Positions 22,406-59,983 of a stretch of DNA of 64,000 nt are shown one piece after another. The DNA is from Escherichia coli. GTDB lineage: Bacteria > Pseudomonadota > Gammaproteobacteria > Enterobacterales > Enterobacteriaceae. The stretch lies in NCBI RefSeq assembly GCF_003790525.1, contig NZ_CP033635.1; one strand, 5' to 3'. Numbering within the stretch: the stretch's first letter is position 1; the number at the start of each line of letters is the position of its first letter. A program made the translations under genes and the position numbers. The notes below the pieces were generated by a model. That model was given only the letters and a program-made list of their open reading frames with translations, was not told the origin of the DNA and ran no database searches.

Positions 22406-22554
22406 TACTTAACTATATGAAAATAAATGGATTTTATTTTCATGTGTCCAGATAATGTCCATCTTTGAAGAAAAAAGTCCACAATACTGACGTTGTGGGC
22501 TTTTCTTTTTCCTGATGGTGTCGTGCCGTCAGTGCAACGAACCAAAGGGAGGGG

Positions 22555-23173: not shown

Positions 23174-23283
23174 ATCCGGCCTTCAGGTTTTCCCTCCGGC
23201 CATCAGCCGAAAGGCACCCGTTTCTTTTTGTTGCGGCAATATTTCAGGTGTCAGTTGGGGTGGGCTGTATCTTGTCTGATGCA

Positions 23284-23382
23284 TAAAAAAATGCCCGCGC
23301 TTTGGCGGGCAAAAGACAAGACTTTTCGTTTGTATATCATGGATAATGGACACCCCTTCCTGTTGTCAGGTGGCAGGCACCC
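23284..23382 (-). ncRNA. Candidate small RNA or leader unit X1
   Basis: Minus-strand -35 TTGAGA (23412-23417), 17-bp spacer, -10 TAGATT (23389-23394); ends at hairpin plus U-run. Confidence 0.3.
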
Positions 23383-23486
23383 GTGGTTAATCTACTGTTT
23401 TTGTGCTTTTGTCTCAACCCTGAAGTTTTCATGGAAAATCAGGGTTGCTTCATATGTGCCAGGAAGGTGCGGCTATGATAACTGCC

Positions 23487-23578
23487 AAAAAAAGCCCGCT
23501 TTCCGGCGGGCAAAACAGCAATGTGAGTTGTCTGTCATTGATACTGGACAGCCTTCCTGTTGTCAGGTGGAAGGTACC
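23487..23578 (-). ncRNA. Candidate small RNA or leader unit X2
   Basis: TTGAGA-N17-TAGATT on the minus strand, then terminator. Confidence 0.3.
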
Positions 23579-23930
23579 CGTGGTTAATCTACTGTCTTTG
23601 TGCTTTTGTCTCAACCCTGAAGTTTTCATGGAAAATCAGGGTTGCTTCATGTGAACCAGGAAGGTGAGGCGATGGTAACCGCCAAAAAAATGCCCGCTTT
23701 CCGGCGGGCAAAACAAGGAAGTACGGATCATGTATTATTGATTACGAGGCATTCCACCATGCCCACGTTTAATTTAGCTAGTTTTCATTTTATTCACAAT
23801 ATAGTTACTTATCATATTTATGAACAAAACTGTAATTTCATCTATAGGTATAAGTGATTTGCATTAACATGTTTCTTCTGTATTGCTGTTGGTTTTCCGA
23901 TGCTGATATTTATGATACATTCAGGGGCAA

Positions 23931-24002
23931 ATGAGGTTGTTCCACAGAAACGATGTTGAGATATTTCTGCTCCAGAAAGGACAAGCTAAAAAAATAAAGT
24001 GA
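23931..24002 (+). pseudogene. Disrupted paralog (Y1) of the small protein at 25756-25971
   Basis: MRLFHRNDVEIF... then premature stop; conserved AT-rich upstream region. Confidence 0.3.
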
Positions 24003-24135
24003 AATTATGATATGTCAGGGATGTTCAGGCATGTCAGTGTCTTATTAATAAACTCGTTGCTGCTGTAATAACACCAAAAAAATCAAAGCATAATCTGCAT
24101 GTTGTTCCTGATGACCCAATAACCACAAAAGAATA

Positions 24136-24228
24136 AAAAAATGCCCGCTTTCCGGCGGGCAAAACAGCAATGTGAGTTGTCTGTCATTGATACTGGACAC
24201 CCTTCCTGTTGTCAGGTGGAAGGCACCC
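24136..24228 (-). ncRNA. Candidate small RNA or leader unit X3
   Basis: TTGAGC-N17-TAGATT on the minus strand, then terminator. Confidence 0.3.
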
Positions 24229-24586
24229 GTGGTTAATCTACTGTCTTTGTGCTTTTGGCTCAACCCTGAAGTTTTCATGGAAAATCAGGGCTGCTTTGTG
24301 TGCGCCAGGGAAGGCGCCTCGATGGCAGGCGCAAAAAAAATGCCCGTGCTTCGGCGGGCAAAATAAGGAAGTACAGGTTACATGTTATTGATAAAGTAGC
24401 ATTGCTCTGTCCGTCTTTAATCTAACGAGTTTTGAGTTTTTTCACAATATTGTTACCTGTCATGTTATAGATGAAACTGCAATTTCATCTATAGGTATAA
24501 ATGATTTGTATTAATGTGTGTCCACTGTTTGTCTGCTTTCTGGTTTTCAGTTGACTGTGTTTCTGATGAATTCAGGAGGTTGTCTT

Positions 24587-24685
24587 ATGAGGCTGTTCCA
24601 CAGAAACGATATTGAGATTGAACTGCATTTCTCCTCCGGTGAGGATAAGGTTAAATCATTGTTGATGAAAAAAACAAAGATTTAA
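24587..24685 (+). pseudogene. Truncated paralog (Y2) of the small protein at 25756-25971
   Basis: MRLFHRNDIEIELHFSSGEDKVKS then divergence and stop; SD AGGAGG. Confidence 0.3.
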
Positions 24686-24815
24686 TTTATTGATATAAAG
24701 GATTTGTATCAGCGTATGTCCACGCAGTGACCACATTTTCGAGAGGTAGAGTAAGCCCGCAACATTGCGGGCTTTGTCTTATAGTCTGATCACTGTTTCA
24801 AGTCGGTGAGGACAC

Positions 24816-24852
24816 CAAAAAGAAAACCCGCAGTTTTTATGCTGCGGGTTTG
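24816..24852 (-). terminator. Intrinsic terminator downstream of the hok-like gene
   Basis: Minus strand aaacccgcagcataaaaactgcgggttt plus T-run. Confidence 0.6.
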
Positions 24853-24937
24853 TTGTTCATGTCTGTGAGATAGGGTGCCTTATCGACCTTACCCTGGCAA
24901 CCGATTGACGGGGGATTGCTCCCCCGTCGCGGTTTCC

Positions 24938-25078
24938 TTACTTCTTACATTGTAAGAACGCCGCAAACTCCGCTCCCCAGAAGCTCATCCGTATTTCGCA
25001 CAGCGAACCGTGCAATATCCAGATGATGAGGATTGCCGTCACGCAGAACGTGATGGCCGTAAGCGATTTTTGCGACAT
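24938..25078 (-). CDS. Hok/Gef-family type I toxin homolog (46 aa)
   Basis: MSQKSLTAITFCVTAILIIWILHGSLCEIRMSFWGAEFAAFLQCKK; TM helix plus SLCEIR...AAF as in Hok; SD AAGGAG. Confidence 0.65.
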   Translation of the reverse strand: MSQKSLTAITFCVTAILIIWILHGSLCEIRMSFWGAEFAAFLQCKK

Positions 25079-25178
25079 AGCACTTGCTCCTTTTCCGGAG
25101 AGGCGCTAACCTTTCACTTGTCAAGGTAATGCGGTTAGGGCCTCGGTTAAACAGAAATGTTTTCCGGGGCCTTTCCAC
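24945..25178 (-). CDS. Mok-like reading frame overlapping the hok-like ORF
   Basis: ORF track; overlaps the hok homolog in another frame. Confidence 0.3.
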   Translation of the reverse strand: MERPRKTFLFNRGPNRITLTSERLAPLRKRSKCYVAKIAYGHHVLRDGNPHHLDIARFAVRNTDELLGSGVCGVLTM

Positions 25179-25314
25179 ATCCGGCCTTCAGGTTTTCCCT
25201 CCGGCCATCAGCCGAAAGGCACCCGCGCGTAATTTAACTGTTTCTTTTTGTTGCGGCAATATTTCAGGTGTCAGTTGGGGTGGGCTGTATCTTGTCTGAT
25301 GCATAAAAAAATGC

Positions 25315-25400
25315 CCGCGCTTCGGCGGGCAAAAAACAAGACTTTTCGTTTGTATATCATGGATAATGGACACCCTTCCTGTTGTCAGGGGGAGGTACCC
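25315..25400 (-). ncRNA. Candidate small RNA or leader unit X4
   Basis: -35 and -10 hexamers kept (TTGAGC, TAGATT) while the 17-bp spacer differs from X1-X3. Confidence 0.3.
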
Positions 25401-25755
25401 GTAGCTAATCTACTCACTTTGTGCCCGCAGCTCAACCCTGAAGTTTTCATGGAAAATCAGGGCTGCTTTGTGTGCGCCAGGGAAGGCGCCTCGATGGCAG
25501 GCGCAAAAAAAATGCCCGCTCTCCGGCGGGCAAAACAATGATCTACGTCACATTATATTGATAACCGGGCATTCCTCCATGCCCATTTTTAATTTAGCCA
25601 TTTTTCATTTTGTTCACAATATAGTTATCTATCATATTCATGAATGAAATTATAATTTCATCTATAGGTATAAATGATTTGTGTTAATATGTTTCTCCTG
25701 TCTAACTGTTTTCTCATTTTTCGATACTAGTATTTCTGATATATTCAGGGGGCGT

Positions 25756-25971
25756 ATGAGATTGTTCCGAAGAAACGATATTGAGATTGAACTGCATTTC
25801 TCCTCCGGTGAGGATAAGGTTAAATCAATAAAGGTGAAACTAAGACATGCCCGGGATGTTCAGGCGTGTCAGTGTCTTATTGATGAACTCGTTGCTGCCG
25901 GAGGAACGCCAAAAAAACAAAAATATAATCTGCACGTGGTTCCTGATGACCCCATAACCACAAAAGAATAA
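25756..25971 (+). CDS. Hypothetical small protein (72 aa), intact member of the three-copy 'Y' family
   Basis: MRLFRRNDIEIELHFSSGEDKVKS...; SD AGGGGG; AT-rich upstream region. Confidence 0.45.
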   Translation: MRLFRRNDIEIELHFSSGEDKVKSIKVKLRHARDVQACQCLIDELVAAGGTPKKQKYNLHVVPDDPITTKE

Positions 25972-26113
25972 AAAAATGCCCGCTTTCCGGCGGGCAAAAA
26001 ACAATTTAGGTCATATTTCATCATGGATAATTAAATACTTGCCCGTGGTTGCGGGAAAGTATCTGCCGTTAATCTACTTGCCTTATGATGTCCTCTCAAC
26101 CTGATTATTGTTC

Positions 26114-29876: not shown

Positions 29877-30026
29877 TAACCGTCGTGCCCTTTGAGCACA
29901 TTGAAGACTTTGTGGCGGATATCGCCGTTATTTTCAACTGGTCTCCCGCTGAAATCTTCCTGATGGATCCCGGCGAGGTGGTCGCCTGGCGTGAGCGGGC
30001 GGCCCTTCGCAGCGGGAACGCAGAGC

Positions 30027-33000
30027 ATGAAAACGCTTGATATACGGGTCGCCTTCAGCGCTGTTGACAGGCTGACCCGTCCCACCGAAAACGCCCGTCG
30101 CATGATGGGCCAGCTTGGCGACTCCATACAGAGAACGCAGGGTGCGATCAAAAACCTGGAACGCTACGCCCGTTCATTTGATCGCGCCCGCGAGGCTGCA
30201 AACAAGGCCGGAAACGGCATTGTCAGGGCGCAACGCCAGTTAAGCGCACTTCAGCAAATTCAGCGCGCCGGAACCGTGCTGTCTGACAAACAGAAAAAGC
30301 TGATGAACGATTTGAGCCTCAAACTTGAGCGTCTCAATGAGGTCCGTGCGCGTGAAGTTCAGCGAATGCGCGAACTGGGTGGTGAGCTGCGGCGCCACGG
30401 TATTGCGCTTTCCGGCAGTGACAACACCATTCAACAGGCCATACGGCGAACACAGCAATACAACGACCAGCTGGAACGCGAACGGCAGGCGCTGGCACGT
30501 GTCACGCAGGCACGCCAGCAATATTCCCGTGCTCAGGAGACGGCGGGAAAACTTAAAACGGTCGGACTTACGGCGGTTGGTACGGCGGCGGCAGGCGGCT
30601 ATGCGGCCGGACGTTTCCTGCAACCGGCGGTCAGTTTTGGTAAGGAGATGTCACGCGTCCAGGCGCTGACCCGTATTGACAAAAACAGTCCGCAGTTTAA
30701 GGCGCTGCGCGAACAGGCCATTAAGCTGGGCTCTGAAACGCAGTTTACCGCCGGTGATGCTGCCAGCGGTCAGGCGTTCCTTGCCATGGCCGGCTTCACA
30801 CCACAGGCCATACAGGCGGCGCTACCCGGCGTGCTTGATCTGGCAATGGCTGCAGGGATGGACCTGGGACAGACTGCCGATATCAGTTCGAATATCCTCA
30901 CACAGTTTGGTCTGTCCGCTGACCAGATGGATCGCGTGGGTGACACGCTGGCCGCCACCTTCACACGAACCAATACGGATCTCCGTTCACTGGGTGAAAC
31001 CATGAAGTACACGGGTCCGGTTGCAGCTTCACTTGGCCTGTCCCTTGAACAGGCGGCAGCCATGACGGGTGTCCTTGGCAGTGTGGGGATCCGTGGAAGT
31101 GATGCAGGTACGGCGCTGCGTGCCAGTCTGTCACGTCTGGTTGATCCGCCGAAGGCCGCTGCAATGGCACTGAAAGAGCTTGGCGTGGAGACGCAGAATG
31201 CTTACGGGAACATGCGCCGGATGGAAAATATCCTGAATGAGCTGTACCAGGCCACCCGAAAATACGGTAATGCCGCGCAGGTCTCCTTTTTCAGGGCTAT
31301 TGCCGGGCAGGAGTCCTATGTTTCCCTGATGAATCTTGTCACTGCGGCGGGGGAAAATAATCTTCCCCGTCTTACGCAGGAGATTGAACTGGCCACCGGG
31401 GAACTTAATCACACTGCCCGTGTTATGGCTGATAACCTGGACGGTGACCTGAAATCACTGAACAGCGCATGGGAAGGACTGCGTATCCGTGTCGCTGACC
31501 TCGTTGACGGGCCGCTGCGTTCTGTCACGCAGTCGTTCACCCGGGTTATTGCGAAAGTCACCGCGCTGGCTCAGGCGCACCCTGAACTGACAAAACAACT
31601 GCTGATTGCCGGTGGTGTACTGCTGGCTGCGGTTGCGGCCATGGGGGCGCTGTCACTTGCCACTGGTGTGTTGATGGGGCCGCTGGCAAAACTGCGTCTT
31701 GGGTTTGCCCTGCTGACCGGCACATCCGGCCTCGGTCGTGCGCTGCCGTTACTGACGCAGCTGCGCGGCGTACTCGGTGGTCCGCTGGGCGGTATCGGTG
31801 GCTGGCGCGTGCTGTTTGTCGGTATCACCTCCGGTGCCGGACGGTTTGCTGCACTGCTGGGCGTAGTTGCGGGGCGGCTTCGTGGTGTGCAGGCGGGACT
31901 TGGCGCGCTGCGTGGTGGTCTGCTGGCTGCGTTCACTTCACCTGGCGGCGCACTGATTTCACTGGGGCGCGGTATCGGAATACTGGCGCTCAGACTGTCA
32001 GGTCTGCCCGCACTGTGGGGGATGGTGAGTGGTGCGGTGGGCGCACTTGGCGGGGCGCTGGGTTTTCTGTTAAGTCCGGTGGGCCTTGTGGTGGCGACAC
32101 TGGTCGGTGCGGCAGTGCTTATCTGGCGGCACTGGGACCAGCTGAAGGCTGTCGTGGGCGGGTTCTTGTCCGGCCTGTGGCAGGGGCTTACGCCACTGCG
32201 CGAGGCTGTGGCACCACTGGGACCGCTGTTTGAGTATGTCGGGCAGACAATCGGGCGTGTGTGGCAGTGGTTCGTGGATTTGTTCGCGCCGGTAAGCACA
32301 ACAAAGGATGAGCTGGACAAGTGCACGGAAGCCGGGCGTACGTTCGGGCAGAAGGTAGGGGAGTTTATCAGCAATCTGGTGACCGGTCCGGTTACGCTGC
32401 TGATTGACTCATTAACCCGGGTGCTGGAAAAACTCGGGCTGATTCCGTCGGCGGTTGAGCGCGCCCGGAAAAAGGCGGAAGAACTAAAACAGAAGGAGTT
32501 GCTGAACGAGAAAGCTGCCATGCTTCTGGCGGATGTTAACGTCATTAATCCGCCGAAAAAGGACGAGGATAAAAAAGACGGCGAAAAACCCAAAGGGGGG
32601 CAACCACCCCTGACGGGGGAGAATACCGGCACTATGCGCCGCCTGAACAAAATCGTCGATAACACCGGTGGTCTGCTGGATGAGGCGAAACAGGCGAAAA
32701 AACGCGCTGGTCCCGGCGATATTATCTTTAAAAACCTGCCGGAAGCGCTGGCCGTTCGTGGTGAGTGGAAGGAGGAACGCTTTAACCGAGCAGCTTCCCT
32801 GTTACCGGGTAGTGTCAGTGAGCCACCTGTCAGACTGCCGCAGGTGCCGTCGGTCAGTGTGCCTTCGTTGCCACCGCTGCCAGCGCCACCGCCTGTCAGT
32901 GTTTCGCCGCTGATATCCACCACGGCGAACGTGTCGCCGGTCGTGAAGCCGGTGGTGTCCGTGAATAATGTGCCGGTTATTCCTCCGGTCGTCCGTCCGG

Positions 33001-33338
33001 TACTGTCCGGTAATATTACGCCAGTGGTTCCGCCGGTGATCAAACCGGTTATGACTCACGATGTCATGCCGACGTTCTCCCCGCTAATGACACCAGTGAT
33101 GGCGGCAACATCCCGTCCGGTGGTTGAGGCTGTGCGCCAGCCCATATCCCCCGCATCGCCCCGACCGCGCCAGAGTGAGCCGGCACCATGGGGATTAACT
33201 GGCGAACTGCATATTCACCTGCATGATGTTCACACGCAAAACCCGCGCGAACTGGCAAAAATGGTGGGTGATGCCGTCCGTGCGGAAATGGAACGCCGTA
33301 TCCGCCAGACAGTCGGTAGTTTCCGTGACAGAGATTAG
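30027..33338 (+). CDS. T: Tail tape measure protein (P2 T-like)
   Basis: About 1103 aa, coiled-coil N-terminus, Gly/Ala-rich hydrophobic middle; start MKTLDIRV. Confidence 0.85.
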   Translation: MKTLDIRVAFSAVDRLTRPTENARRMMGQLGDSIQRTQGAIKNLERYARSFDRAREAANKAGNGIVRAQRQLSALQQIQRAGTVLSDKQKKLMNDLSLKLERLNEVRAREVQRMRELGGELRRHGIALSGSDNTIQQAIRRTQQYNDQLERERQALARVTQARQQYSRAQETAGKLKTVGLTAVGTAAAGGYAAGRFLQPAVSFGKEMSRVQALTRIDKNSPQFKALREQAIKLGSETQFTAGDAASGQAFLAMAGFTPQAIQAALPGVLDLAMAAGMDLGQTADISSNILTQFGLSADQMDRVGDTLAATFTRTNTDLRSLGETMKYTGPVAASLGLSLEQAAAMTGVLGSVGIRGSDAGTALRASLSRLVDPPKAAAMALKELGVETQNAYGNMRRMENILNELYQATRKYGNAAQVSFFRAIAGQESYVSLMNLVTAAGENNLPRLTQEIELATGELNHTARVMADNLDGDLKSLNSAWEGLRIRVADLVDGPLRSVTQSFTRVIAKVTALAQAHPELTKQLLIAGGVLLAAVAAMGALSLATGVLMGPLAKLRLGFALLTGTSGLGRALPLLTQLRGVLGGPLGGIGGWRVLFVGITSGAGRFAALLGVVAGRLRGVQAGLGALRGGLLAAFTSPGGALISLGRGIGILALRLSGLPALWGMVSGAVGALGGALGFLLSPVGLVVATLVGAAVLIWRHWDQLKAVVGGFLSGLWQGLTPLREAVAPLGPLFEYVGQTIGRVWQWFVDLFAPVSTTKDELDKCTEAGRTFGQKVGEFISNLVTGPVTLLIDSLTRVLEKLGLIPSAVERARKKAEELKQKELLNEKAAMLLADVNVINPPKKDEDKKDGEKPKGGQPPLTGENTGTMRRLNKIVDNTGGLLDEAKQAKKRAGPGDIIFKNLPEALAVRGEWKEERFNRAASLLPGSVSEPPVRLPQVPSVSVPSLPPLPAPPPVSVSPLISTTANVSPVVKPVVSVNNVPVIPPVVRPVLSGNITPVVPPVIKPVMTHDVMPTFSPLMTPVMAATSRPVVEAVRQPISPASPRPRQSEPAPWGLTGELHIHLHDVHTQNPRELAKMVGDAVRAEMERRIRQTVGSFRDRD

Positions 33339-48175: not shown

Positions 48176-48202
48176 CGCGCTTCGCTTGTCTGCTGCTTCG
48201 CC

Positions 48203-48225
48203 GGGGCATAAAAAATTTATGCCCC
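48203..48225. terminator. Hairpin between the portal gene and the cargo gene
   Basis: ggggcataaaaaatttatgcccc. Confidence 0.5.
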
Positions 48226-48241
48226 GACTCTCCAGCTCTGC

Positions 48242-48955
48242 TTAACGAAGTGCTGATGGCGCTCGCTTTTTCAGGTGATTAGCGATGTGCTTTTTCATGT
48301 GCATAACAACATCGCCCCAGGCTTCTTCGCTGGGTTTATTGATAAATACGCGAACAGAAATATCGTCTTCCACCCGGACTCTCAGAGACACCCGTTCCGC
48401 ATCTACTGAATATAATTCAAGTGCAATAACCACGCTTACCGGGTAGCTGCTGTCAGATGACTTAACCCAGGTTCGCACGGCCATGCGGAAAATATTGTCT
48501 GGTGCAGATGCGATATTGTGGACTGAAAGAGGACTAAAATCCGCCGCTGTCTTACATGGCAAGCCTGTCTCCACGTAGCGGTGCAGGTCGCCATCATCGT
48601 CTTCCCAGTACATGGATGGAAGCCCCAGCCATTCTTCATAGAAATCAATCAGCCTTGCCGCTTCATCCCGCAAAATTTGAGCTGCCTCAGCGCGTTTTTC
48701 TTCAGCTTCACGATTGATCTGGCATAAATCATTAAAGTGGCTCATGACATTATCCTCTTTTGAGTTGATGCCTGCCGCTATTCTGACTTTGCCCGGGTTC
48801 TCCTGCAAGCTGGTTATTCCTTCAGATAATTTCACAACATCTCCAACCTTGTAGCCATCATCGCCGGGCGGATGCTTACGCAACCCCGCAACTCTGACGA
48901 CATATTCTCGCTGCCTCAGTGCGATTTTGACGGCCTTATCTTTCACCCCCATCAA
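48242..48955 (-). CDS. Uncharacterised cargo protein at the P2 tin/old position (237 aa, or 167 aa from an internal start at about 48745)
   Basis: Own transcription unit; internal ATG has SD AAGAGGATAA; no motif recognised. Confidence 0.5.
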   Translation of the reverse strand: MMGVKDKAVKIALRQREYVVRVAGLRKHPPGDDGYKVGDVVKLSEGITSLQENPGKVRIAAGINSKEDNVMSHFNDLCQINREAEEKRAEAAQILRDEAARLIDFYEEWLGLPSMYWEDDDGDLHRYVETGLPCKTAADFSPLSVHNIASAPDNIFRMAVRTWVKSSDSSYPVSVVIALELYSVDAERVSLRVRVEDDISVRVFINKPSEEAWGDVVMHMKKHIANHLKKRAPSALR

Positions 48956-49235
48956 ATCAAGCTTTTACGTCTTTTTTACGCTCAGCGTGAGAAATACAGC
49001 CATTCTGTTGTGTCGCTGCAACATCGTTCAGGGAATGCTATTTACCCCCTGAAACGCGGGCTGTTCCCCCGTCACCTGCGCGCAGAAAAAGGCCTTTTTT
49101 CGTGCACGCACGGATCCCCGACGGATCCAGACGCCACACGGGCCGGAAGGGCAAAAAGTCGTTCAAAAAAATTGTGCAAATTTGTGCACTATTGTGCATT
49201 GAAATAAACGCCCTGGAGGAGGGCGTTTTGCTCAT

Positions 49236-49637
49236 CTATTTATAGCCTTGCCCCTTACTGGCCAGCGCCCTGATGGCAGGGCGTGCCAACACCATATTTT
49301 GGCAATGATGAATTGCCCGGCAAAATTCATCTCTACCCATTGGATGCTCAACTGGCAATGTAAAATACAGGTTCCATGCATCGCCTAAAAGTTGGGCTAT
49401 CTTTTGTTCTTCAGATGTCAGCAAGCGGTACTCCCCATCCTTGATGTAGTCACTTGTGCCATCGACCTGCTGTTCTGCAATGTGGAAAGCACCTATTGGT
49501 TTTGCTTCCAGCGATGCCAAAGCAATCCGTGCCAGTTTTTCCGCTTCTTCGGCTGGCAGTACAACGTTGCTACCAGGTCCGTATGTTTCGCGCCACTGCC
49601 TGATTGTCAGTAGTCGCTCTTTGGTTATAGTGGTCAT
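49236..49637 (-). CDS. Hypothetical protein (133 aa), last gene of the operon downstream of A
   Basis: ORF track; start overlaps upstream ORF; followed by a terminator at about 49210-49232. Confidence 0.45.
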   Translation of the reverse strand: MTTITKERLLTIRQWRETYGPGSNVVLPAEEAEKLARIALASLEAKPIGAFHIAEQQVDGTSDYIKDGEYRLLTSEEQKIAQLLGDAWNLYFTLPVEHPMGRDEFCRAIHHCQNMVLARPAIRALASKGQGYK

Positions 49638-49843
49638 TTGTTAATCCTCAAAACTTTATGCCCGGGCGCAAAAGCACGAGTTTTGTCTTTGCTTATTCGC
49701 CAGCCATCCTTACGCGCCTCTTTTGCACAGCCAGTCCATGACGTACCGATATATTCACCGAAGTCTGGCGTTTGATATTTACCATTTGTACACTGGCGAC
49801 AATCACAATAGAGATGCATGGTGTAACTTGCGGCAATAGCCAT
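49634..49843 (-). CDS. Hypothetical Cys-rich small protein (69 aa), possible zinc ribbon
   Basis: CDCRQC...C pattern; translationally coupled to neighbours. Confidence 0.4.
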   Translation of the reverse strand: MAIAASYTMHLYCDCRQCTNGKYQTPDFGEYIGTSWTGCAKEARKDGWRISKDKTRAFAPGHKVLRINK

Positions 49844-49844
49844 A

Positions 49845-50174
49845 TCAGTCTCCTTTGATGCCAGTGTTTACAACCTGACAAGCCTCTTTGAGCACCCAGT
49901 CAACAGCGTCTTGCCATGCTCCGGTTTCGACTGGCGGATTCTCACGCTTTACCAGTTCATAGAAACGTACTGCTCTAACCAGTCCATCTGACGGTTTTGC
50001 CTGTAGTGCAGCCTGAGCTATGCGGTATACCTGGAGCATACAGGCGTCGTTGATATCCATTCCGAATGGAATATCTGATGACTGAGATTCCACATCTTCC
50101 AGCCTGGCAATTTCTTTACGTAAGAAGCCTTTCAGTTCCTGCTTCTGTTTCCTGTTCATATATTTTTCCTTCAA
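49845..50174 (-). CDS. Hypothetical protein (109 aa)
   Basis: ORF track; coupled within the operon. Confidence 0.45.
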   Translation of the reverse strand: MKEKYMNRKQKQELKGFLRKEIARLEDVESQSSDIPFGMDINDACMLQVYRIAQAALQAKPSDGLVRAVRFYELVKRENPPVETGAWQDAVDWVLKEACQVVNTGIKGD

Positions 50175-50365
50175 AGTTCGGTTCGCTGACAGGGTTTCTC
50201 TTTACGGCAGACAATGACGCTTCCTTTGCTCGAGTCGGTGATTGTTACCGTGCCGTCATCACACTGGACAATGACAACGGTGTTGCTCTTTTTCGCTACG
50301 CAGTTCGGCGTGGCTGATTGTGCGAATGGCGCGAAAAACAGCAGAAAAAGTAATATTCTGCTCAC
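50171..50365 (-). CDS. Candidate small secreted Cys-containing peptide (about 63 aa, GTG start)
   Basis: SD GGGAGGAAA before GTG; hydrophobic signal-like N-terminus and four Cys. Confidence 0.3.
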   Translation of the reverse strand: MSRILLFLLFFAPFAQSATPNCVAKKSNTVVIVQCDDGTVTITDSSKGSVIVCRKEKPCQRTEL

Positions 50366-50793
50366 TGTTGTTTCCTCCCGTTCTGTGCTGGTCTGGCGAA
50401 TGAATTGCGTTGTGGTGAAAAGACCATTCGCGCCAGCGCGGCCTTGTGATTGACTGTGTTCAGTGTTCTGGCCAGTCCGCCGTTGTGCCTGCGTGTCCGC
50501 TCTTCGTGATATCTCTGCATGATTTTCCCGGCAGGCGTGCACGGCTCCGGTTCCTCCGGCGAACGGCGCGGACGAATGACGACAGTCCAGCTATGGCTCT
50601 CGCTGCCCGGCCGCCTGTTGAGTATGTCGGCGATGGTGGTCTCCGTGGTGCGATCGGGGCTGACTATCGTGATTTCCAGCTCGTCGCCCGGTTGTGGCCT
50701 TGTGGCAGGCCTGAACAGTGTCAGCACCGGCATACGCTGGCGCATGATGGCCTCAAACTGTGGGCGCTGCATGGTGCAGCAAAATCGCGTCAT
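50362..50793 (-). CDS. Hypothetical protein (143 aa), translationally coupled to A
   Basis: Start overlaps the A stop. Confidence 0.45.
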   Translation of the reverse strand: MTRFCCTMQRPQFEAIMRQRMPVLTLFRPATRPQPGDELEITIVSPDRTTETTIADILNRRPGSESHSWTVVIRPRRSPEEPEPCTPAGKIMQRYHEERTRRHNGGLARTLNTVNHKAALARMVFSPQRNSFARPAQNGRKQQ

Positions 50794-53300
50794 GCTCCCG
50801 CCTCCACTGGCTGCTCTGTGATGATGTGACGGGCTGACTCATCCCAGTACGCTGTTCCCCCGTTATCCAGACGCACACGGGCACCGTTACGCACGGAGAT
50901 GATGGCCGCGTCAGGCAACTGCACACCCAGCGCATCAAGTTCGCGGGCGATTTGCGTGTCCGTCGCGGTATCCGCAGGCACGACAATCCCCACCCTTACA
51001 GGGGTGTCAGATGCCGGTGTGGTGTCGTTTTGTCCGGTTTTTGCGCCCGACGGCTGATTTTTAATCTGATTACGCAGTTTTCTCCGATCGCCCCTGCTTA
51101 ACGTATTCAGCCAGCTTTCCAGGTTCTCTTCGGGAAGCGTCAGTCGTCCGGGGTCCTGCCTGTTTTCTGGTCCGTGATTGTCTGTTTTTTCATCCCGGGG
51201 ACAGTTATTGCCACGAGTCCAAGGGGCGACGGGGTCGCCCTGAAGGTCAAAACCCTCGCCCGTGCGGTTGTCTGGTATTGTTTCTTTTTTAACCAGTTTC
51301 CACTCGTCCGGATGGGTGCATATGGTGTACCGCTCTCCGAGCGACGGGGCGCAGATTCCGTAGATACGTTGAGGGAATTCACCGTAGTCGTTGGCTTCGT
51401 CTGCGGTTTCGTATGCGGTGCGGACCAGATACTGGTTGCGCGGAATGAGCACACCACCCTGTTTCATGATGTAGGTGGCAAAACATCCCACATCTGCGGC
51501 AGCCATAATGGCGTCAATATCGTCATGATCGAGGTGCTTCGGTGATGCCGGGTTGCGCTCCATCTGGCTTGCAAGGCGGCGGAGTTCACGCCATACCTGG
51601 CGGGGCGGAATGCCGAAAAACTGGAACTGACGGATGCGGTGAAGGCTTGCCCAGGCAATGGCGTTCTCCACGGTTTCCGCCATGGTTTTCCCGGATTCCT
51701 CATCAACGTAAGGTTTTCCGGTTTTCGGATCATTGTTGTGGAAAGCGCTGGCGTCCAGGTTCTTACCGATATAGGTTGCGATATAGCTTGCCGGTGTGCC
51801 TTTTTCCGGGTCTATCTTCTCGCATTTAAAGCGCGGTGAAATATCGTCCCCCAGTTCGTGGCGATCTGATTTAATTGCTGCTTCGCGCATAATTTCGATG
51901 ATGCGCTCTGCGTTCTCCGGGGAAGTGAATACCAGCATATGCCAGTGTGGCGTGCCGTCATGGTGTGGCTCAGCGGTTCGCACGCCGTACCAGCCCAGCC
52001 CCTCTTTTTTTATTTTTTTTCTTACGGCTGCGAAGAAGTCGTAAACCAGATAATCACTGGCATCTCGTACTGTGGCACCGTTGTATTTCGGGTTCAGGCT
52101 GCCGTTCTCGTTCACGCTGTGAAAGCGGGAAGGGGTGGTTACTGTGATGAAGAATGCGACGTCAGCCCGTAATTCGGCCACCATCTCCATCCCTCTGACG
52201 CAGACCATCATTTCATTGCGGCGGTTGCGTGGATTACCCAGGCCAGCCCAGTACACGTCCTCCAGACTCAGGCGCTCGCCGTCTTCGTTTTCAATATCCC
52301 AGCTTTTGAGAAAGTCACAGGTGCGCTGGCGCTTCTCGCGGAACTCCAGTAGTGACTCATGGCTGATATAGGGGGATTGTTTACGTGACACTCTGCCGGC
52401 GGCGCGCAGTAACTCCTCCCGCCAGAGATCGGCGACGTGGCGTAACTGGTTGTTCCACCAGGTCGCGCAGGTGATGCGCAGTACCGCACCCGGAACCCGT
52501 TCAGGGTCCGGCGGTGTGCGTCGGTTGTGCCTGATTTCGAGTTCCGGCCAGTATGGCGGGACCATGCCCAGAATTAAGGCTGTGCGTGCCACCTTCTGGT
52601 AGGCCAGCAGCCAGATAACCGGGCTGTCATTATCCTTGCCTGTCCGTTCAAGAACTTCATCACATATGCGTTCAAATTCTGCGGCGAATGCCTGGGCTGT
52701 CAGTGTGGCGATGCGCTGGATTTCGTCACGGGTGAGTTGCGGCAGTGTGAGCAGTTCTTCAAGGCGATGGCGCACGACGGTGGTTTTGAATGCCGGCGTT
52801 GCAAAGCGGTCGTTAACCCTTTCAATACGTTTCAGGCGCGCACGCAGTCCACGGCGAACGAAATTATCGGCCACGTATGCGCTGTTGTTTTTTACACCTT
52901 CACTGCGGGCACTTTGCTGTTTCCGGTTCAGTCGTGCCAGATCACGGATCAACACACTGGCAAGAAACGAGGGCAGGGTGCGAAGTTCGGCTATCGCCTC
53001 CGATACCGCCGTTGGCGGATTTTCGCGTCTGTGTCGTGCCAGCTTATCCAGCCTTATCTGCCGCTCTTCGTCCCGGTGAAGGTGTGAATTAATTTGCTTA
53101 CCTTTGTCCGTGGTTGTCAGGAAGGCCACGGTTTCTTCATCCAGCCGGGCCTCAGTGCGAATGTCTTCGGTGAGGTAGTCACGGATTGCCCGTTGTAATG
53201 CGGTTGGCTTCTGCGGTAATGCTCTGCCGAATGTCTCAGGATCAATAACCGGCAGCGGGGCGTTCCACGGGTACGCCAGGTGCGTGTGGTGATGGCTCAT
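50790..53300 (-). CDS. A: Replication initiation protein (P2 A-like)
   Basis: 836 aa; position downstream of the regulatory genes. Confidence 0.85.
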   Translation of the reverse strand: MSHHHTHLAYPWNAPLPVIDPETFGRALPQKPTALQRAIRDYLTEDIRTEARLDEETVAFLTTTDKGKQINSHLHRDEERQIRLDKLARHRRENPPTAVSEAIAELRTLPSFLASVLIRDLARLNRKQQSARSEGVKNNSAYVADNFVRRGLRARLKRIERVNDRFATPAFKTTVVRHRLEELLTLPQLTRDEIQRIATLTAQAFAAEFERICDEVLERTGKDNDSPVIWLLAYQKVARTALILGMVPPYWPELEIRHNRRTPPDPERVPGAVLRITCATWWNNQLRHVADLWREELLRAAGRVSRKQSPYISHESLLEFREKRQRTCDFLKSWDIENEDGERLSLEDVYWAGLGNPRNRRNEMMVCVRGMEMVAELRADVAFFITVTTPSRFHSVNENGSLNPKYNGATVRDASDYLVYDFFAAVRKKIKKEGLGWYGVRTAEPHHDGTPHWHMLVFTSPENAERIIEIMREAAIKSDRHELGDDISPRFKCEKIDPEKGTPASYIATYIGKNLDASAFHNNDPKTGKPYVDEESGKTMAETVENAIAWASLHRIRQFQFFGIPPRQVWRELRRLASQMERNPASPKHLDHDDIDAIMAAADVGCFATYIMKQGGVLIPRNQYLVRTAYETADEANDYGEFPQRIYGICAPSLGERYTICTHPDEWKLVKKETIPDNRTGEGFDLQGDPVAPWTRGNNCPRDEKTDNHGPENRQDPGRLTLPEENLESWLNTLSRGDRRKLRNQIKNQPSGAKTGQNDTTPASDTPVRVGIVVPADTATDTQIARELDALGVQLPDAAIISVRNGARVRLDNGGTAYWDESARHIITEQPVEAGA

Positions 53301-53787: not shown

Positions 53788-54012
53788 TTAGTGGTGGTGC
53801 TGGTTAATGAGGTCCTGCAGCTCGCGCAGGTCATCCACCAGGTAGCTGAATACAGCGGCGGAATACATGTTTGACAGTGCGTGGCTGCGCTCATGCAGCA
53901 TATTGATGTGCATGATATGCGCGACGCGGAATGCGCGGAAAAGTCTGCGGTTGATTTCAGTCTGGATGTGACGACGCGCAGCGTATGCGCGCTGTTGTTT
54001 GCGGTTTGCCAT
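53788..54012 (-). CDS. Hypothetical early-region protein (74 aa)
   Basis: ORF track. Confidence 0.45.
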   Translation of the reverse strand: MANRKQQRAYAARRHIQTEINRRLFRAFRVAHIMHINMLHERSHALSNMYSAAVFSYLVDDLRELQDLINQHHH

Positions 54013-54020
54013 GGTGTGGC

Positions 54021-54245
54021 CTCTGTAGTTGCAAGTTTTGAAAACTCACCATCCAGAGGTTGCAATTCTGGGTGGCGAGACGTACAGGGTTGCAACCACC
54101 GGCAACTACAGAAACCGGCCCGACCGAAGTCGGCCCCATACGCCCCGCCATAATTCTGGCGCGAAAAAGACGTGGCGATACGGTACGCACAAAAAAACCG
54201 CTGGCGCGGTTGTGCGCTGTAGTTGTCAGCGGGGGTTGCAATCCC
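54021..54245. repeat. Cluster of GTTGCAA(C)/TAGTTGCAA motifs in a 320-bp intergenic region
   Basis: Six copies in both orientations at about 54026, 54057, 54087, 54101, 54219 and 54233. Confidence 0.45.
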
Positions 54246-54332
54246 GGCACCCGTTTTATGAGGTGCAGCGGAAATGTAACCTGACTGATTGCGGCATGGC
54301 AAGCGGTTTTTTTGTGTGTGCATAGTGGTTAC

Positions 54333-54971: not shown

Positions 54972-55121
54972 TGATGAATCCGCCGTTCAGTGGATCTGGC
55001 GGACACTTTGTTCAACACGCCCGGGGGTAAAGATGTCTGGCTGCAAAAATTCCACGAGCCAGGTTACCCTGCACTCTGCGCTGATTAGGGGCAGAGCGAT
55101 GACGATGAGGGATAAAACACC

Positions 55122-55604
55122 ATGCAAAACAACCAACGTAAAAAATCGAGAGAACGGGATGAGGTCATGTTCCGTCTCTGGTACAGCTACTGGCTGGAGC
55201 GCATCGCGGCGGTATTCAATCGTCGCCTTGATGCGATCATCAACATTTTGATCCTTGCGGCGGGTGCGTTCATCGTAGCCGGCTGGCATTTCGGCTGGGT
55301 GCTTGGGGCAGTGGTGGTGGTTCTCGGAGCCTGTAATTTCATATGTCGTTTCGGGCAACGTGCGCAGGCGGCGAGTGAGCATGCCCATCGCTACAATGAG
55401 TTGATTACCAAAAGCGCCCTCCTCAGTACGGAAGCTCTGCTGGCACGCCTTCCAGAGCTTGAGATGCATGACTCTCCTGTCCTGGAATGCATGGAAAATG
55501 TGGCGTACAACAAAGCCTGTATGTCTCTGAATATCAGTCATCGTGAATCTCTCTCTTTCGCTGAAAAGATGATGGCTGCCATTACGATCGGTTTTTCCCG
55601 ATAA
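55122..55604 (+). CDS. Small membrane protein (160 aa, two adjacent TM helices), opposite strand to all neighbours
   Basis: SD GAGGG; INILILAAGAFIVAGW and GWVLGAVVVVLGACNFI hydrophobic segments. Confidence 0.55.
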   Translation: MQNNQRKKSRERDEVMFRLWYSYWLERIAAVFNRRLDAIINILILAAGAFIVAGWHFGWVLGAVVVVLGACNFICRFGQRAQAASEHAHRYNELITKSALLSTEALLARLPELEMHDSPVLECMENVAYNKACMSLNISHRESLSFAEKMMAAITIGFSR

Positions 55605-55643
55605 GTGCCCTGCGTGTGTCATCTGACGCTCGCCATGTTCCCG

Positions 55644-55856
55644 TCAGTCGTTCGGGTTTATGACGTAATCCACGACGTTTTCCACGCGGCGGCGTAATTC
55701 CCTGTGTATCTGGCCTGGTGTTGCTGGTTCGCCCGGTTGCCCCAGGCCTGCCACAAAATCGTCGATTTCACTCATAAGCAGGTTGCGCATTACGGCGATA
55801 TGGTGACGCGCCTCTTTGCCTGGTCTGCGTGCGTTGGTATCGTGTTTGCTGCTCAT
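55644..55856 (-). CDS. Hypothetical small protein; start chosen at MSSKHDTN
   Basis: ORF track with internal start to avoid overlap. Confidence 0.4.
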   Translation of the reverse strand: MSSKHDTNARRPGKEARHHIAVMRNLLMSEIDDFVAGLGQPGEPATPGQIHRELRRRVENVVDYVINPND

Positions 55857-56062
55857 GTTCTTACCTCGCTTATTATCTCGAGTTCGCGCCATGACTCTGT
55901 CAGGACGGTTATCTGTGACCCGTCCGTCAGGTGGACGTAAATCAGTTCGTCACCTGCCGGGCATCGGGTGGTGGTGGCGATGACACTGCTTTCCACTTCG
56001 TATTCCATCCCGGATGTATCGGTAAAAAGCGTTTTATTGCGTCTTCTCAGAATTGCAGTCAT
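55853..56062 (-). CDS. Hypothetical small protein (69 aa)
   Basis: ORF track. Confidence 0.4.
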   Translation of the reverse strand: MTAILRRRNKTLFTDTSGMEYEVESSVIATTTRCPAGDELIYVHLTDGSQITVLTESWRELEIISEVRT

Positions 56063-56072
56063 GGTGTGGCCC

Positions 56073-56366
56073 TCAGTGTATTCGTGATGACGTGCCAGCC
56101 TCAGTGCTCTGAAGCTGACGTCTGAGGTTTTTCAGCTCCTGAGCCAGCCTGATGTTTTCTTCCCGGAACTCAGAAAGCGCCTGCACGGCAAGGGCGATGG
56201 CTATCGCTTCTGTCTGGTGCATCATGGCTAATAATATTTCTTCCGGATGTTCCATTAATTCACGGCTTAGTTTGTTTTTTTTCTTAATTAATTTGTTTGT
56301 GCCTTCGATTATTTTGTTGACCTGTTCACTGTTATCAATGATTCGGTTTTTTTTATTATTAAGCAT
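56073..56366 (-). CDS. Hypothetical coiled-coil protein (97 aa) in an AT-rich segment
   Basis: Lys/Asn-rich, A/T-rich codons unlike flanking genes. Confidence 0.45.
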   Translation of the reverse strand: MLNNKKNRIIDNSEQVNKIIEGTNKLIKKKNKLSRELMEHPEEILLAMMHQTEAIAIALAVQALSEFREENIRLAQELKNLRRQLQSTEAGTSSRIH

Positions 56367-56568
56367 TCCTGATTTCTCCTTTTTGAGCGGGTCAACCCCT
56401 CCGCGTGAGCGGATGTTTCTGGTTGTTTCTGGTGTTAAACGCCTGTTTATTTACGGCGCTTATCGCCAGTAAATAACGATTCAATGGTGTTAATGCTGTT
56501 AATTACCCGCATAATCCCCACAGCGCAAATAATGGCAAGGATAAGAATTAACCATGACATAAATACGC

Positions 56569-56811
56569 TCATGCTTCCTCCTGAATTACAAAGGGGGTTA
56601 TTACGTTTCCTTCAGACAGGTCTTTATTAATGGCCTGTAATTCCGTCAGAGCTTCATTATCTCCGGAACCAAAGGCGCAACAGGTCAGGCCCTTGATTGC
56701 TGTAGTCAGTGCTGCAAGTGAAACAGCGTCACCGTTAGTGCCACGGCTTGTAAGTCCGTAATGGTAATTCTGAAGCGCGTCGTTAATGAGTTCTTTATAG
56801 GCTCTTTTCAT
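56569..56811 (-). CDS. Hypothetical small protein (80 aa)
   Basis: ORF track. Confidence 0.45.
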   Translation of the reverse strand: MKRAYKELINDALQNYHYGLTSRGTNGDAVSLAALTTAIKGLTCCAFGSGDNEALTELQAINKDLSEGNVITPFVIQEEA

Positions 56812-56849
56812 CTTGCTGCCTCTTCTGTCTTATTAAGACTCCTTTTGCC

Positions 56850-57158
56850 TTAGTAGTCGGTATGCTGAAAGCTGCGCCCCTCGATTAAGCGGTCGGCAGT
56901 TCGCAAGGCTTCGTGCAGTGTGAAATCCTGTCCGAACTGATTGTCGCCGCTGCTCAGTGCAAAAATGCGGTTTCCGGTAAACGGATTGCGGTGGCATCTG
57001 TGGATCACGAGTCCGGCCTGCTCAATCAGCCAGGTGTGTTGACCAGTCTGTTTTACAGCATGACCGCCCGGCGTTGCGTGTGTTTCGCGCAGGCTCCAGC
57101 GGTTATTGCTGCGTGGTGCACTGTTGCGGAAATGTGGCTGTGAATAATGTTTTCGCAT
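56850..57158 (-). CDS. Hypothetical protein (102 aa)
   Basis: ORF track. Confidence 0.45.
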   Translation of the reverse strand: MRKHYSQPHFRNSAPRSNNRWSLRETHATPGGHAVKQTGQHTWLIEQAGLVIHRCHRNPFTGNRIFALSSGDNQFGQDFTLHEALRTADRLIEGRSFQHTDY

Positions 57159-57440
57159 TATTTATCTCCTGCGCTTATTTTTCCTTCTATGCAATCTTTC
57201 ATGAATAACAAATACTCATTGGCTTCCTCTTCCGTTTTTAATATTCTCTCCAGATAGAAATTCTGAAAGTGTATATAGACTTATGCTCCTACCTTTGTTG
57301 TGGCTATTATGTCTTTTGCTTTAAAGTGCAATGCGTCACTACTTCTGGAGGTTAATCTTTGTCTTGGTTTCATGTTGTTGTCTTCCTTTACTTGAATACT
57401 ATTGCGGAAATATAGCTACGAATGATTACGTTGTGTGCCT

Positions 57441-57647
57441 CTACCTGATGAGCCAGATGACAAACGCTGTAAGTCCCGCGCCAACAACTATTGGAAAAAG
57501 CCCTTTAGAATAAGCTGCGACGTAATGAACGTTGAGGACAATAAAACGTTCTTTTTGTCCTGTTAGCTTGCCAAGCAGATAAATCACTACTACGCCTAAT
57601 TCCAGGAATATAATGTTCAAAACGGCATTGATGATATTGCTGGTCAT
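57441..57647 (-). CDS. Small hydrophobic membrane protein (68 aa)
   Basis: Two predicted TM helices; follows the cox-like gene. Confidence 0.35.
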   Translation of the reverse strand: MTSNIINAVLNIIFLELGVVVIYLLGKLTGQKERFIVLNVHYVAAYSKGLFPIVVGAGLTAFVIWLIR

Positions 57648-57655
57648 TTTCGTGT

Positions 57656-58177
57656 TTAGCCGGGCTGGTTGTTTTTGAGTTGCTCCAGTTTTGAAACTCT
57701 GGGGGAGTAAACCTGCTTACCTTTAACGGTCTGGCAGTCCTCCTTGTTTGCCGGTGAAAACTTTCTTTTCTTGCGGTCGTACGTCCAGTAGCTTTTCCAG
57801 TTGTGCCACTCTGGCGGTTCGCACTCCAGTAGTTCGTCGGCTAGTTCGTCCCAGGCTTTGGCGTTAAACCACCATGTACCGTCTGACTTTTCATCTTCGG
57901 GATTTGAGCGCGTTTTGTGACCCGGCATCTGCCCGCGCTGAATGGCGGCGCGTAGCGCAGATTTTGTTACCCCCAGATAGGCAGCCCCTTTTTCCAGTGA
58001 CACAAGTCCTGCGACTGGGCCGTCCAGTCGTAGGGTTGCGCCCTTTTTGTAGGACGGTCTGGTTTTGGTTTCCAGGTGTTCGTTGTCGTTGGCAGCTTCA
58101 ATGAATTCATTGTCCGCGCCATCATCCTGAACCGGTTGAGCGCCAGATAACTCTTTGTCGGCAATAATCTCCCGCAT
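57656..58177 (-). CDS. Cox/Apl-like HTH excisionase-regulator candidate (173 aa)
   Basis: Divergent from the C repressor gene; HTH-like AYLGVTKSALRAAIQRGQMPGHK. Confidence 0.45.
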   Translation of the reverse strand: MREIIADKELSGAQPVQDDGADNEFIEAANDNEHLETKTRPSYKKGATLRLDGPVAGLVSLEKGAAYLGVTKSALRAAIQRGQMPGHKTRSNPEDEKSDGTWWFNAKAWDELADELLECEPPEWHNWKSYWTYDRKKRKFSPANKEDCQTVKGKQVYSPRVSKLEQLKNNQPG

Positions 58178-58280: not shown

Positions 58281-58622
58281 ATGAGTATCTTGTCAATAGA
58301 CTATGCGAAAAAGTTGCGTTTGATACGCAAGACGGAAGGGCTAACTCAAAAGCAATTTGCTGATATTACAGGGTTATCTCTGGCAACTGTCAGGAATTAT
58401 GAGTCAGGGCAAAAGATCGCCAGAGCAAAGATTGTTGAGGCCGTCCTTCAAGTGGATCGGTTTGAAAAATATATGTTCTGGCTAATCAAAGATAAGACGC
58501 TACCTGTTGCCGGTCAGATCGCCCCGGCTCTCTCTCTTGATGGCTCCACGCAGTCGGAGGACGATCAGGTTTCAACCCGCAATACCCAAAAATCACCCCA
58601 ATCAGGCCGCAATGCTGGCTGA
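58281..58622 (+). CDS. C: Immunity repressor (P2 C-like)
   Basis: HTH LTQKQFADITGLSLATVRNYESGQ and GQIAPAL as in P2 C. Confidence 0.8.
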   Translation: MSILSIDYAKKLRLIRKTEGLTQKQFADITGLSLATVRNYESGQKIARAKIVEAVLQVDRFEKYMFWLIKDKTLPVAGQIAPALSLDGSTQSEDDQVSTRNTQKSPQSGRNAG

Positions 58623-58682: not shown

Positions 58683-59687
58683 GTGCTGATCATGTCGATT
58701 AAGCAACTCAAAGACGGACGTTATCAGGTTGATGTAAGGCCTCAGGGGGCGGGAGGAAGGCGGATTCGTAAGATTTTCACCCTGAAATCAAAGGCGCAGG
58801 AATTCGAAAGATACGTTCTTCAGAATTTCCACAATAACCCGTGGCAGGCAAGGCCCGCCGATCAACGGCGGTTATCAGAACTGATTGAGGTGTGGTGGAT
58901 GCTTGATGGTCGTAATCAGGCATATGGTGATACCTACAGAACCAGACTGGAGAAGGTGATACGTGAAATGGGGGACCCGCGCGCCAGCCAGATGACACGA
59001 AAATTCGTGATTGAGTATCGCTCGGATAAGTTGCAGGCGGGACTGATGCCGTCCAGTATCAATCGCGACCTGTGCGCCTTATCTGCGATGTTTTCGTTGT
59101 TAATTGACGCGGAGGTTTATCATAACGAAAACCCTGTGCGCGGAATACGTAAACTCAAGGTTCAGAATACAGAAATGGCCTTTCTTTCAGATGACGAGAT
59201 TGATCGCCTTCTGAAACGGCTTGAGGGTGATGCACGACGCATTGCCATTCTGTGCCTTTCGACCGGGGCCAGATGGAAAGAGGCGTCAACGCTTCGCGGG
59301 GAACACATCGTGGGTAACAGGGTGACGTTCTTTAACACAAAGAACGGGAAATCGCGCTCGGTTCCTGTAGCTGATTCCGTTGTGCCGTTAATTAAAACCC
59401 GCCGGACCGGCCTGTTATATCAGGTTGATTATCTCAGTTTCAGGGAGATCCTTCAGGAGGTGAAGCCCGACTTACCCAAAGGGCAGGCCACGCATGTCAT
59501 GCGGCACACGTTCGCCACGCATTTCATGATGAACGGCGGGAACATCGTCACGTTGCAGAGGATCCTGGGTCACGCCACGATTCAGCAAACGATGACGTAT
59601 GCGCATTTTTCACCGGACTTTTTACAGGATGCGATCAGCTTTAATCCGCTGGCTGAAAGTGTCCATAAACTGTCCATCGACCAGTAA
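58683..59687 (+). CDS. int: Tyrosine integrase (P2 Int-like)
   Basis: KQLKDGRYQVDVRP...AILCLSTGARW...HVMRHTFATHF...LGHATIQQTMTYAHF close to P2 Int. Confidence 0.9.
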   Translation: MLIMSIKQLKDGRYQVDVRPQGAGGRRIRKIFTLKSKAQEFERYVLQNFHNNPWQARPADQRRLSELIEVWWMLDGRNQAYGDTYRTRLEKVIREMGDPRASQMTRKFVIEYRSDKLQAGLMPSSINRDLCALSAMFSLLIDAEVYHNENPVRGIRKLKVQNTEMAFLSDDEIDRLLKRLEGDARRIAILCLSTGARWKEASTLRGEHIVGNRVTFFNTKNGKSRSVPVADSVVPLIKTRRTGLLYQVDYLSFREILQEVKPDLPKGQATHVMRHTFATHFMMNGGNIVTLQRILGHATIQQTMTYAHFSPDFLQDAISFNPLAESVHKLSIDQ

Positions 59688-59773
59688 TTATTTGTGATAA
59701 TTTGCTCCCCTTGTTTTTGTTTACTTATTGAAAAATAAGGAAATCAGCAAGAGGAGTAAGTACCGTTAAATCT

Positions 59774-59788
59774 CCTGCGGGCGCTTTT
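59774..59788. other. attR core CCTGCGGGCGCTTTT
   Basis: Identical 15-mer at 22385-22399. Confidence 0.7.
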
Positions 59789-59983
59789 TTTGTCTCCCTT
59801 TGATACCGAACAATAATTACTCCTCACTTACACGTAATACTACTTTCGAGTGAAAATCTACCTATCTCTTTGATTTTCAAATTATTCGATATATACAAGC
59901 CTATATAGCGACCTGCTATAGAAATAATTACACAATACGGTTTGTTACTGGAATCAATCGTGAGCAAGCTTGAGTGAGCCATT

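Follow-up and report, generated by a model that had tools for sequence, protein, structure and literature searches.

Organization of the locus

The window is the whole 64,000-nt stretch of Escherichia coli DNA that was analysed, and the segment discussed here (56073-57647) lies in it within a P2-family (Peduoviridae), P88-like prophage located between serS and dmsA (26114-59687; 55.2% GC). RefSeq calls at the locus describe a P2-family prophage with an integrase, a helix-turn-helix repressor, a Cox-family protein and small hypothetical genes, along with a replication endonuclease and P2-type head, tail and lysis genes. Among named phages, the closest are P88-like Peduoviridae (genus Xuanwuvirus). 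Judged from the RefSeq annotation, the Pfam Phage_Cox and HTH_3 matches and the best phage matches, the arrangement is that of a P88-like early operon, i.e., int and C divergent from cox, followed by small early genes, gpA and P2-type late genes. Several complete E. coli chromosomes match the 3.1 kb around the segment at 100% identity. The features, beginning at the integrase end and following the direction of early transcription, are:

58692-59687, plus strand: integrase
58281-58622, plus strand: C repressor, divergent from cox
57656-58177, minus strand: Cox-family DNA-binding protein, 173 aa, first gene of the early operon (Pfam Phage_Cox, E 1.5e-8; phrog_23196, E 1.6e-92)
57124-57651: swapped allelic block, comprising orf68, the orf71 pseudogene and the first DUF4761 codons; 37.8% GC
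57441-57647, minus strand: orf68, small membrane protein; 41.5% GC
57159-57440: 282-bp "gap"; 35.1% GC
57158-57373, minus strand: orf71 pseudogene, 71-codon frame; 34.7% GC
56850-57158, minus strand: DUF4761 protein, 102 aa, core early gene; 54.7% GC (Pfam PF15958, 158.9 bits, cutoff 27)
56569-56811, minus strand: DUF4754 protein, 80 aa; 45.7% GC (Pfam PF15946, 41.1 bits, cutoff 27; phrog_2549)
56447-56572, minus strand: orf41, small membrane peptide, single-pass by hydropathy; 38.1% GC
56367-56446: 80-bp spacer between orf41 and orf97
56400-56413, minus strand: hairpin with a 5-bp stem, within the 80-bp spacer
56001-56393: segment without homology to the CS5L-type relative, comprising the putative orf97 insertion and a diverged orf69 start
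56073-56366, minus strand: orf97; 42.2% GC
55853-56062, minus strand: orf69
55644-55856, minus strand: orf70
50790-53300, minus strand: gpA, further along the operon

Along the early operon, the spacing is 8 nt from cox to orf68, then 67 nt, 38 nt, a 4-nt overlap, 80 nt and, from orf97 to orf69, 10 nt. For comparison we used a set of 87 P88-like loci, 80 of them from IMG/VR, with cox identified in 41. The DUF4761 gene was found in all 87 (dN/dS 0.09) and the DUF4754 family in 84; for orf41 dN/dS is 0.12, and no family in Pfam, PHROGs, NCBIfam or PADLOC matches it. Our literature search found no paper that mentions DUF4761.

Several other features of the window were recorded. On the minus strand at 53788-54332, an Rfam isrK-like RNA (54266-54191, 60.1 bits) is directly followed by a C4 antisense-type RNA (54155-54068, 80.1 bits), both within the 320 bp that separate a 184-aa helix-turn-helix protein from a 74-aa ORF. 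This ORF scores 25.8 bits for the Pfam "Derepression protein family", just under the cutoff of 27. With the two RNAs come a promoter-like site at 54302-54273 and, at 54211-54196, a hairpin resembling a terminator. Taken together, these elements resemble an antirepressor module under RNA control, of the P1 immI or P4 type, carried by a P2-family prophage. A 15-bp direct repeat, CCTGCGGGCGCTTTT, occurs at 22385-22399, just past serS, and again at 59774-59788, the second copy lying beside the integrase and inside a full-length match to the STnc130 sRNA (59759-59893, minus strand). This repeat may be the att core, in which case the integrated DNA would span about 22.4-59.8 kb and include 3.7 kb beyond ogr. 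The DNA at 22400-26100 is low in GC (43-45% over 23-26 kb) and holds an annotated Hok/Gef gene (24938-25078), repeated hok-like sequence and similar ORFs at 22991-23173 and 24945-25178; RefSeq annotates no feature over about 2.6 kb (22356-24938). The tape-measure gene is an open frame of 1115 codons in the window (29991-33338, plus strand), and in the matching RefSeq record it is a truncated pseudogene "missing C-terminus" that corresponds to 30027-32222, a comparison made at the level of annotation.

Base composition

An earlier note, made from the letters of the sequence, had described orf97 and the stretch 57159-57440 as much more AT-rich than neighbouring genes, and a sliding-window GC and codon-usage check bears this out. 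At 42.2% and 35.1% GC against 55.2% for the whole prophage (51.8% for the early region alone), both are low, and GC at third codon positions is low too, at 0.48, 0.34 and 0.45 in the AT-rich genes of the segment where the median is 0.61. Of all windows as long as orf97, 2.4% in the prophage and 7.7% in the early region are equally low in GC; the corresponding figures are 2.5% and 7.9% for orf68, and 0.6% and 2.1% for the whole of 56073-57647 (44.1% GC). For 57159-57440 they are 0.11% and 0.35%, and this is the most AT-rich 282 bp in the prophage. Among 46 prophage genes, the four lowest GC values belong to orf97, orf68, the gap and orf41. The profile shows two low-GC troughs with the DUF4761 gene, of normal composition, between them; the first takes in orf41 and DUF4754, and the 37.8%-GC trough coincides with the block 57124-57651.

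GC at second codon positions is only 0.29-0.30 in orf68 and orf97, so that part of their AT-richness comes from their content of Ile, Leu, Phe, Lys and Asn codons. The orf41 family is AT-rich yet core (82 of 87 loci, mean 34.8% GC), and genes like P88 gp05 occur in 69 loci at 42.7% GC. Across the 87 loci, family prevalence and GC do not correlate (rho 0.07, p 0.54), in a test with crude ORF calling that took ATG starts only and included some spurious ORFs. Low GC by itself is thus no mark of acquisition in P88-like phages, and it is the mapping of breakpoints that separates acquired from core genes.

A broken small gene in the 282-bp stretch

The stretch 57159-57440, which the earlier note had taken as noncoding, holds a 71-codon frame on the minus strand (57373-57161) with a lone in-frame TAA at codon 31 (57283-57281). 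The frame has a ribosome-binding site, AAGGAAG, and the TAA that ends it (57160-57158) shares bases with the ATG of the DUF4761 gene, giving TAATG. An intact, unannotated 71-aa allele is present in the prophage of E. coli CS5L, where codon 31 reads TCA (Ser), and further intact alleles lie in the IMG/VR loci L011 and L012. A further protein (P0002) combines the N-terminus of the window-type allele with Ser in place of the stop at codon 31. Between the three allele types, amino-acid identity is 41-63% and there are no indels. The TAA is kept in all 15 complete genomes that have the window allele; three genomes with the CS5L allele differ across the 61-bp probe. The stretch holds a small gene recently inactivated by a nonsense codon, with intact alleles in related prophages, and the term noncoding does not hold for it.

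The family is very rare, with 2 clusters among 5.8 billion proteins in a word-indexed protein search, and when 1.84 billion proteins were searched in full with a HMMER profile, only orf71's own 2 representatives came back. No match was obtained by tblastn against phage records, and no family in Pfam, PHROGs, NCBIfam or PADLOC. Between alleles dN/dS is 0.6-2.3; the evidence for a real gene is therefore limited to the open, indel-free frame, a conserved A-x-T-K-V-G motif with synonymous changes, and a confident structural prediction. The predicted fold may be PH-like, with the small beta-sandwich domains of the PH-like and WGR kinds (a beta-sandwich core plus a C-helix) as the candidates for comparison, and a BFVD fold search gave no match at E <= 0.001.

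orf68 and the cox-proximal block

The small hydrophobic protein reported to follow the cox-like gene was found as described: orf68 begins 8 nt past the cox stop, encodes 68 aa with two hydrophobic segments by hydropathy, and matches phrog_14475 (E 3.7e-25). Its alleles differ with a dN/dS of 0.20-0.40, and orf68 is under purifying selection. Homologues at the DNA level occur in about 320 E. coli genomes and in 5 P88-like (Xuanwuvirus-type) phage records, and many relatives carry orf68 without the 282-bp stretch.

Over 55000-57123 the window is matched at 99% identity by two sister prophages, L008 and L009, which are also near-identical to it across cox, C and int. Identity to L008 is at least 95% down to 57652, 70-78% across orf68, absent over 57442-57124, and 99% again from 57123, which places one breakpoint at 57651, just past the cox stop. 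In place of 57442-57124, both sisters have a hydrophobic ORF of 39 aa and another DUF4761 N-terminus. The block 57124-57651 is thus, by sequence comparison, an allele exchanged between prophages that are otherwise 99% identical.

In the 41 loci with cox identified, the cox-to-DUF4761 interval is anything between 41 and 994 bp long, at 33-46% GC, with at least six kinds of content: empty, orf68, orf68 with orf39, orf68 with orf71, orf36 with orf71, a 140-aa gene with a 63-aa gene on the opposite strand, and others. We also note small ORFs in this slot that RefSeq missed in complete E. coli genomes (L003 2559-2774 and 2805-2915, L005 2352-2471, L008 4304-4423; minus strand). These are intact 71-aa orf71 and related hydrophobic peptides of 36 and 39 aa that share an (I/F)(D/N)FG(F/Y)LLSG motif.

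orf97, a helical ORFan

The orf97 product is rich in Lys, Asn and Glu; an AAGGAG lies 9 nt ahead of its ATG, and its stop lies 10 nt ahead of the orf69 ATG. AlphaFold predicts essentially one long helix (pLDDT 89.7; helices 2-39 and 41-96). No family was found in Pfam, PHROG, NCBIfam or PADLOC, and among 5.8 billion protein clusters only E. coli copies of at least 98% identity were retrieved. The gene was found in 26 of 5426 complete E. coli genomes, always at 98.6% identity or more and in the same context; the plasmid search found none, and no phage record covers it.

Compared by blastn to the CS5L-type prophage, the window shows homology over 55000-56000 and 56394-57383, with 393 bp between the two where that prophage has 93 bp. 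In the CS5L-type and L012 relatives orf97 has no counterpart, and the junction is clean: the conserved spacer with its ribosome-binding site is followed by orf97 here and by the orf69 homologue there. Relative to these prophages, orf97 can be read as a gene-sized insertion of about 300 bp. An IS5-family element splits the gene in strain F11 (NZ_CP184143.1, NZ_CM184318.1), and orf97 is therefore dispensable for prophage maintenance. One variant (P0005) differs by an in-frame 6-nt indel, and strain LH10-b-1 has an in-frame 6-nt expansion at one of two A8 runs. Because there is almost no sequence diversity, the coding status of orf97 rests on the ribosome-binding site, the open frame, the in-frame indel variant and the confident helical prediction.

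Two candidate relationships were tried and rejected. A link to the Ea22-like gp10 of P88 gave E 7.4. A 136-aa family found at this position in 25 loci has a superficially similar helical pattern, but yielded no BLASTP alignment to orf97, a probability of 0.25% in hhalign and 1.1 bits in hmmsearch.

A conserved hairpin in the spacer

The 80-bp spacer after orf41 is kept in all loci whatever gene comes next, and gene content diverges just 3' of the hairpin it contains. Over 28 distinct sequences, 98.6% of cells in the hairpin stem are paired, with compensatory CG-to-UA changes at two pairs and two G-U wobbles that fit the early-operon strand only. None of 500 shuffles reached the observed covariation score, and controls slid along the sequence were only 37-61% paired. 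Candidate roles are mRNA processing, mRNA stability, translational control, or a shared recombination site.

Alternative explanations

The earlier note had suggested separate acquisition on the grounds of composition, and one alternative denies any such event: low GC would follow from amino-acid usage and from small early genes being AT-rich in general. The core yet AT-rich orf41 family, the gp05-like genes, the absent correlation of prevalence with GC and the low position-2 GC of orf68 and orf97 all favour it, as does the rank of these two genes when set against the early region alone (just the 8th percentile), and for orf41 and DUF4754 this reading stands. For orf97 and the cox-proximal block it is largely refuted by the sharp breakpoints, which together with presence and absence among relatives give both a history different from that of their flanks; third-position GC is depressed there too. 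We hold it to be very unlikely as an account of the segment. Separate acquisition is thus upheld by comparison for orf97 (the insertion junction and its rarity among complete genomes) and for 57124-57651 (the breakpoints), whereas composition fails as its proof, since orf41 is core and equally AT-rich. Another alternative, which we regard as highly improbable, makes the 282-bp stretch a functional non-coding element, i.e., a regulatory RNA, an antisense antitoxin to an orf68 toxin, or a promoter region. Its extreme AT-richness, its lack of RefSeq annotation and the small, hydrophobic nature of orf68 would fit such an element, but there is no Rfam match in it at E <= 1, its folding energy matches that of shuffled controls on each strand (z -0.68 and +0.59), no promoter-like site lies inside it, it aligns codon for codon with intact 71-aa ORFs, and orf68 is found without it in many relatives. 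Nor does orf68 have the adjoining structured antisense RNA with a promoter of its own that marks a type I toxin-antitoxin pair: near it we found no plus-strand promoter-like site, no Rfam match and no excess structure in the adjoining stretch.

Classical morons have a promoter and a terminator of their own and are expressed from the prophage. The segment had also been called moron-like, and in the strict sense this would make orf97 and/or orf68 autonomous units, expressed from the repressed prophage to the benefit of the host. Two hallmarks of morons are indeed present, namely extra genes (orf97 is absent in the CS5L and L012 types, and the cox-DUF4761 slot is empty in P88) and deviant composition (35-42% against 55.2% GC, with the core orf41 equally AT-rich), and a weak promoter-like site with 9 of 12 matches lies just upstream of orf68 (57658-57631). 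Against this, all genes of the segment share the early-operon strand, orf68 and orf97 lie only 8 nt and 10 nt from neighbours, and orf97 sits directly behind a ribosome-binding site that serves orf69 in relatives. Our scan, a crude consensus search in which AT-rich DNA can hide weak or non-sigma-70 promoters, returned 5 promoter-like and 5 terminator-like sites where 4.2 and 4.5 are expected from shuffled sequence, none of them brackets orf97 or orf68 on the minus strand, and neither gene is flanked by a terminator-like site on that strand. With no promoter or terminator of their own found, these are therefore better described as co-transcribed early accessory genes than as classical morons, and we consider the strict moron reading unlikely.

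A 160-aa gene with two hydrophobic segments lies opposite the early operon (55122-55604, plus strand) and is conserved in the CS5L-type and sister prophages; its similarity to SLATT_1 (E 0.006) and to Bax-inhibitor-like models is no more than weak. Because of its orientation, it is a better candidate for a moron expressed in the lysogen than anything in 56073-57647.

Proposed explanation

We think it probable that 56073-57647 is a variable accessory part of the P88-like early lytic operon, in which core small genes (DUF4761, DUF4754 and orf41) would be interleaved with cassettes traded between related phages by recombination at conserved gene-boundary sequences. The cox-proximal slot would here be filled by orf68 and the nonsense-inactivated 71-codon gene, and a second junction, past the hairpin-bearing spacer, by the helical ORFan orf97. 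Recombination at such boundary sequences would explain why breakpoints fall past the cox stop and just downstream of the spacer. In P2, the early transcript begins with cox and is silenced in the lysogen by the C repressor. To judge from this precedent and from gene spacing, the cassettes probably lack transcription signals of their own and would be transcribed with cox from the early promoter once repression by C is lifted; their products would therefore act during infection or induction and not in the quiescent lysogen.

What these products do is much less certain than the operon-cassette account itself; we infer that the two small membrane proteins and the long-helix protein might target the host envelope or rival phages, for instance in host takeover or superinfection exclusion. 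A broader proposal, possible but in our estimate doubtful, is that the post-cox position and the post-hairpin junction are previously undescribed cargo slots of P88-like phages. These would shuttle tiny, fast-evolving proteins (membrane peptides of 36-68 aa, the 71-aa PH-like ORFan and the 97-aa long-helix ORFan) for superinfection exclusion, host takeover or counter-defence, with the hairpin marking the exchange point or controlling the downstream cassette.

The AT-richness is genuine but nothing unusual in a temperate phage, and the additions made here are modest: a pseudogene and ORFan family that had gone unannotated, a slot for small cargo defined after cox, and the conserved hairpin. For annotation, the value lies in a seemingly non-coding, RefSeq-unannotated stretch that is a recently inactivated small gene, the intact alleles of which are unannotated too. 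As for the small cargo proteins, they may be factors in phage-host or phage-phage interaction.

Comparison with known systems

The moron concept reportedly goes back to Hendrix and colleagues and the lambdoid phages HK97 and HK022. Like lambdoid morons, the segment contains extra between-gene DNA relative to related phages and deviates in base composition; unlike them, it shows no sign of a promoter or terminator of its own in our crude scan.

The non-essential, horizontally acquired genes of P2, i.e., orf30, fun/Z, tin and old, are AT-rich. As in P2 and its relatives, low-GC genes that are absent from close relatives sit here at a few recurrent junctions between core genes. The cargo differs from that of the P2 hotspots in being tiny (ORFs of 36-140 aa), in lying inside the early operon directly after cox, and in showing neither a PADLOC defence-model match nor any sign of its own transcription signals. 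PADLOC gave nothing below E 0.01 for orf97, orf41, orf68, orf71, DUF4761 or DUF4754, and only the helix-turn-helix region of Cox resembles mad1. The main P2 hotspot, between gpA and the portal gene, carries old and tin (PMC9122126); it corresponds to 48176-50789 in the window, and 56073-57647 lies outside it, between cox and gpA. On a cox-proximal hotspot, our literature search found only a general statement that the integrase-to-primase interval of P2-like phages is a minor accessory and defence hotspot, with 8% of the defence systems found in these phages (bioRxiv 10.64898/2026.02.27.708500).

The closest parallel in layout is Escherichia phage P88 (Xuanwuvirus, NC_026014), with which the prophage shares the order int, C, cox, DUF4761, (gp05), DUF4754, a membrane peptide of about 37-41 aa, and the spacer. 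P88 differs in that its cox-to-DUF4761 slot is empty (43 bp) and in carrying gp05, which the window prophage lacks; after the spacer, P88 has gp08, a winged-helix protein and an Ea22-like protein where the window prophage has orf97.
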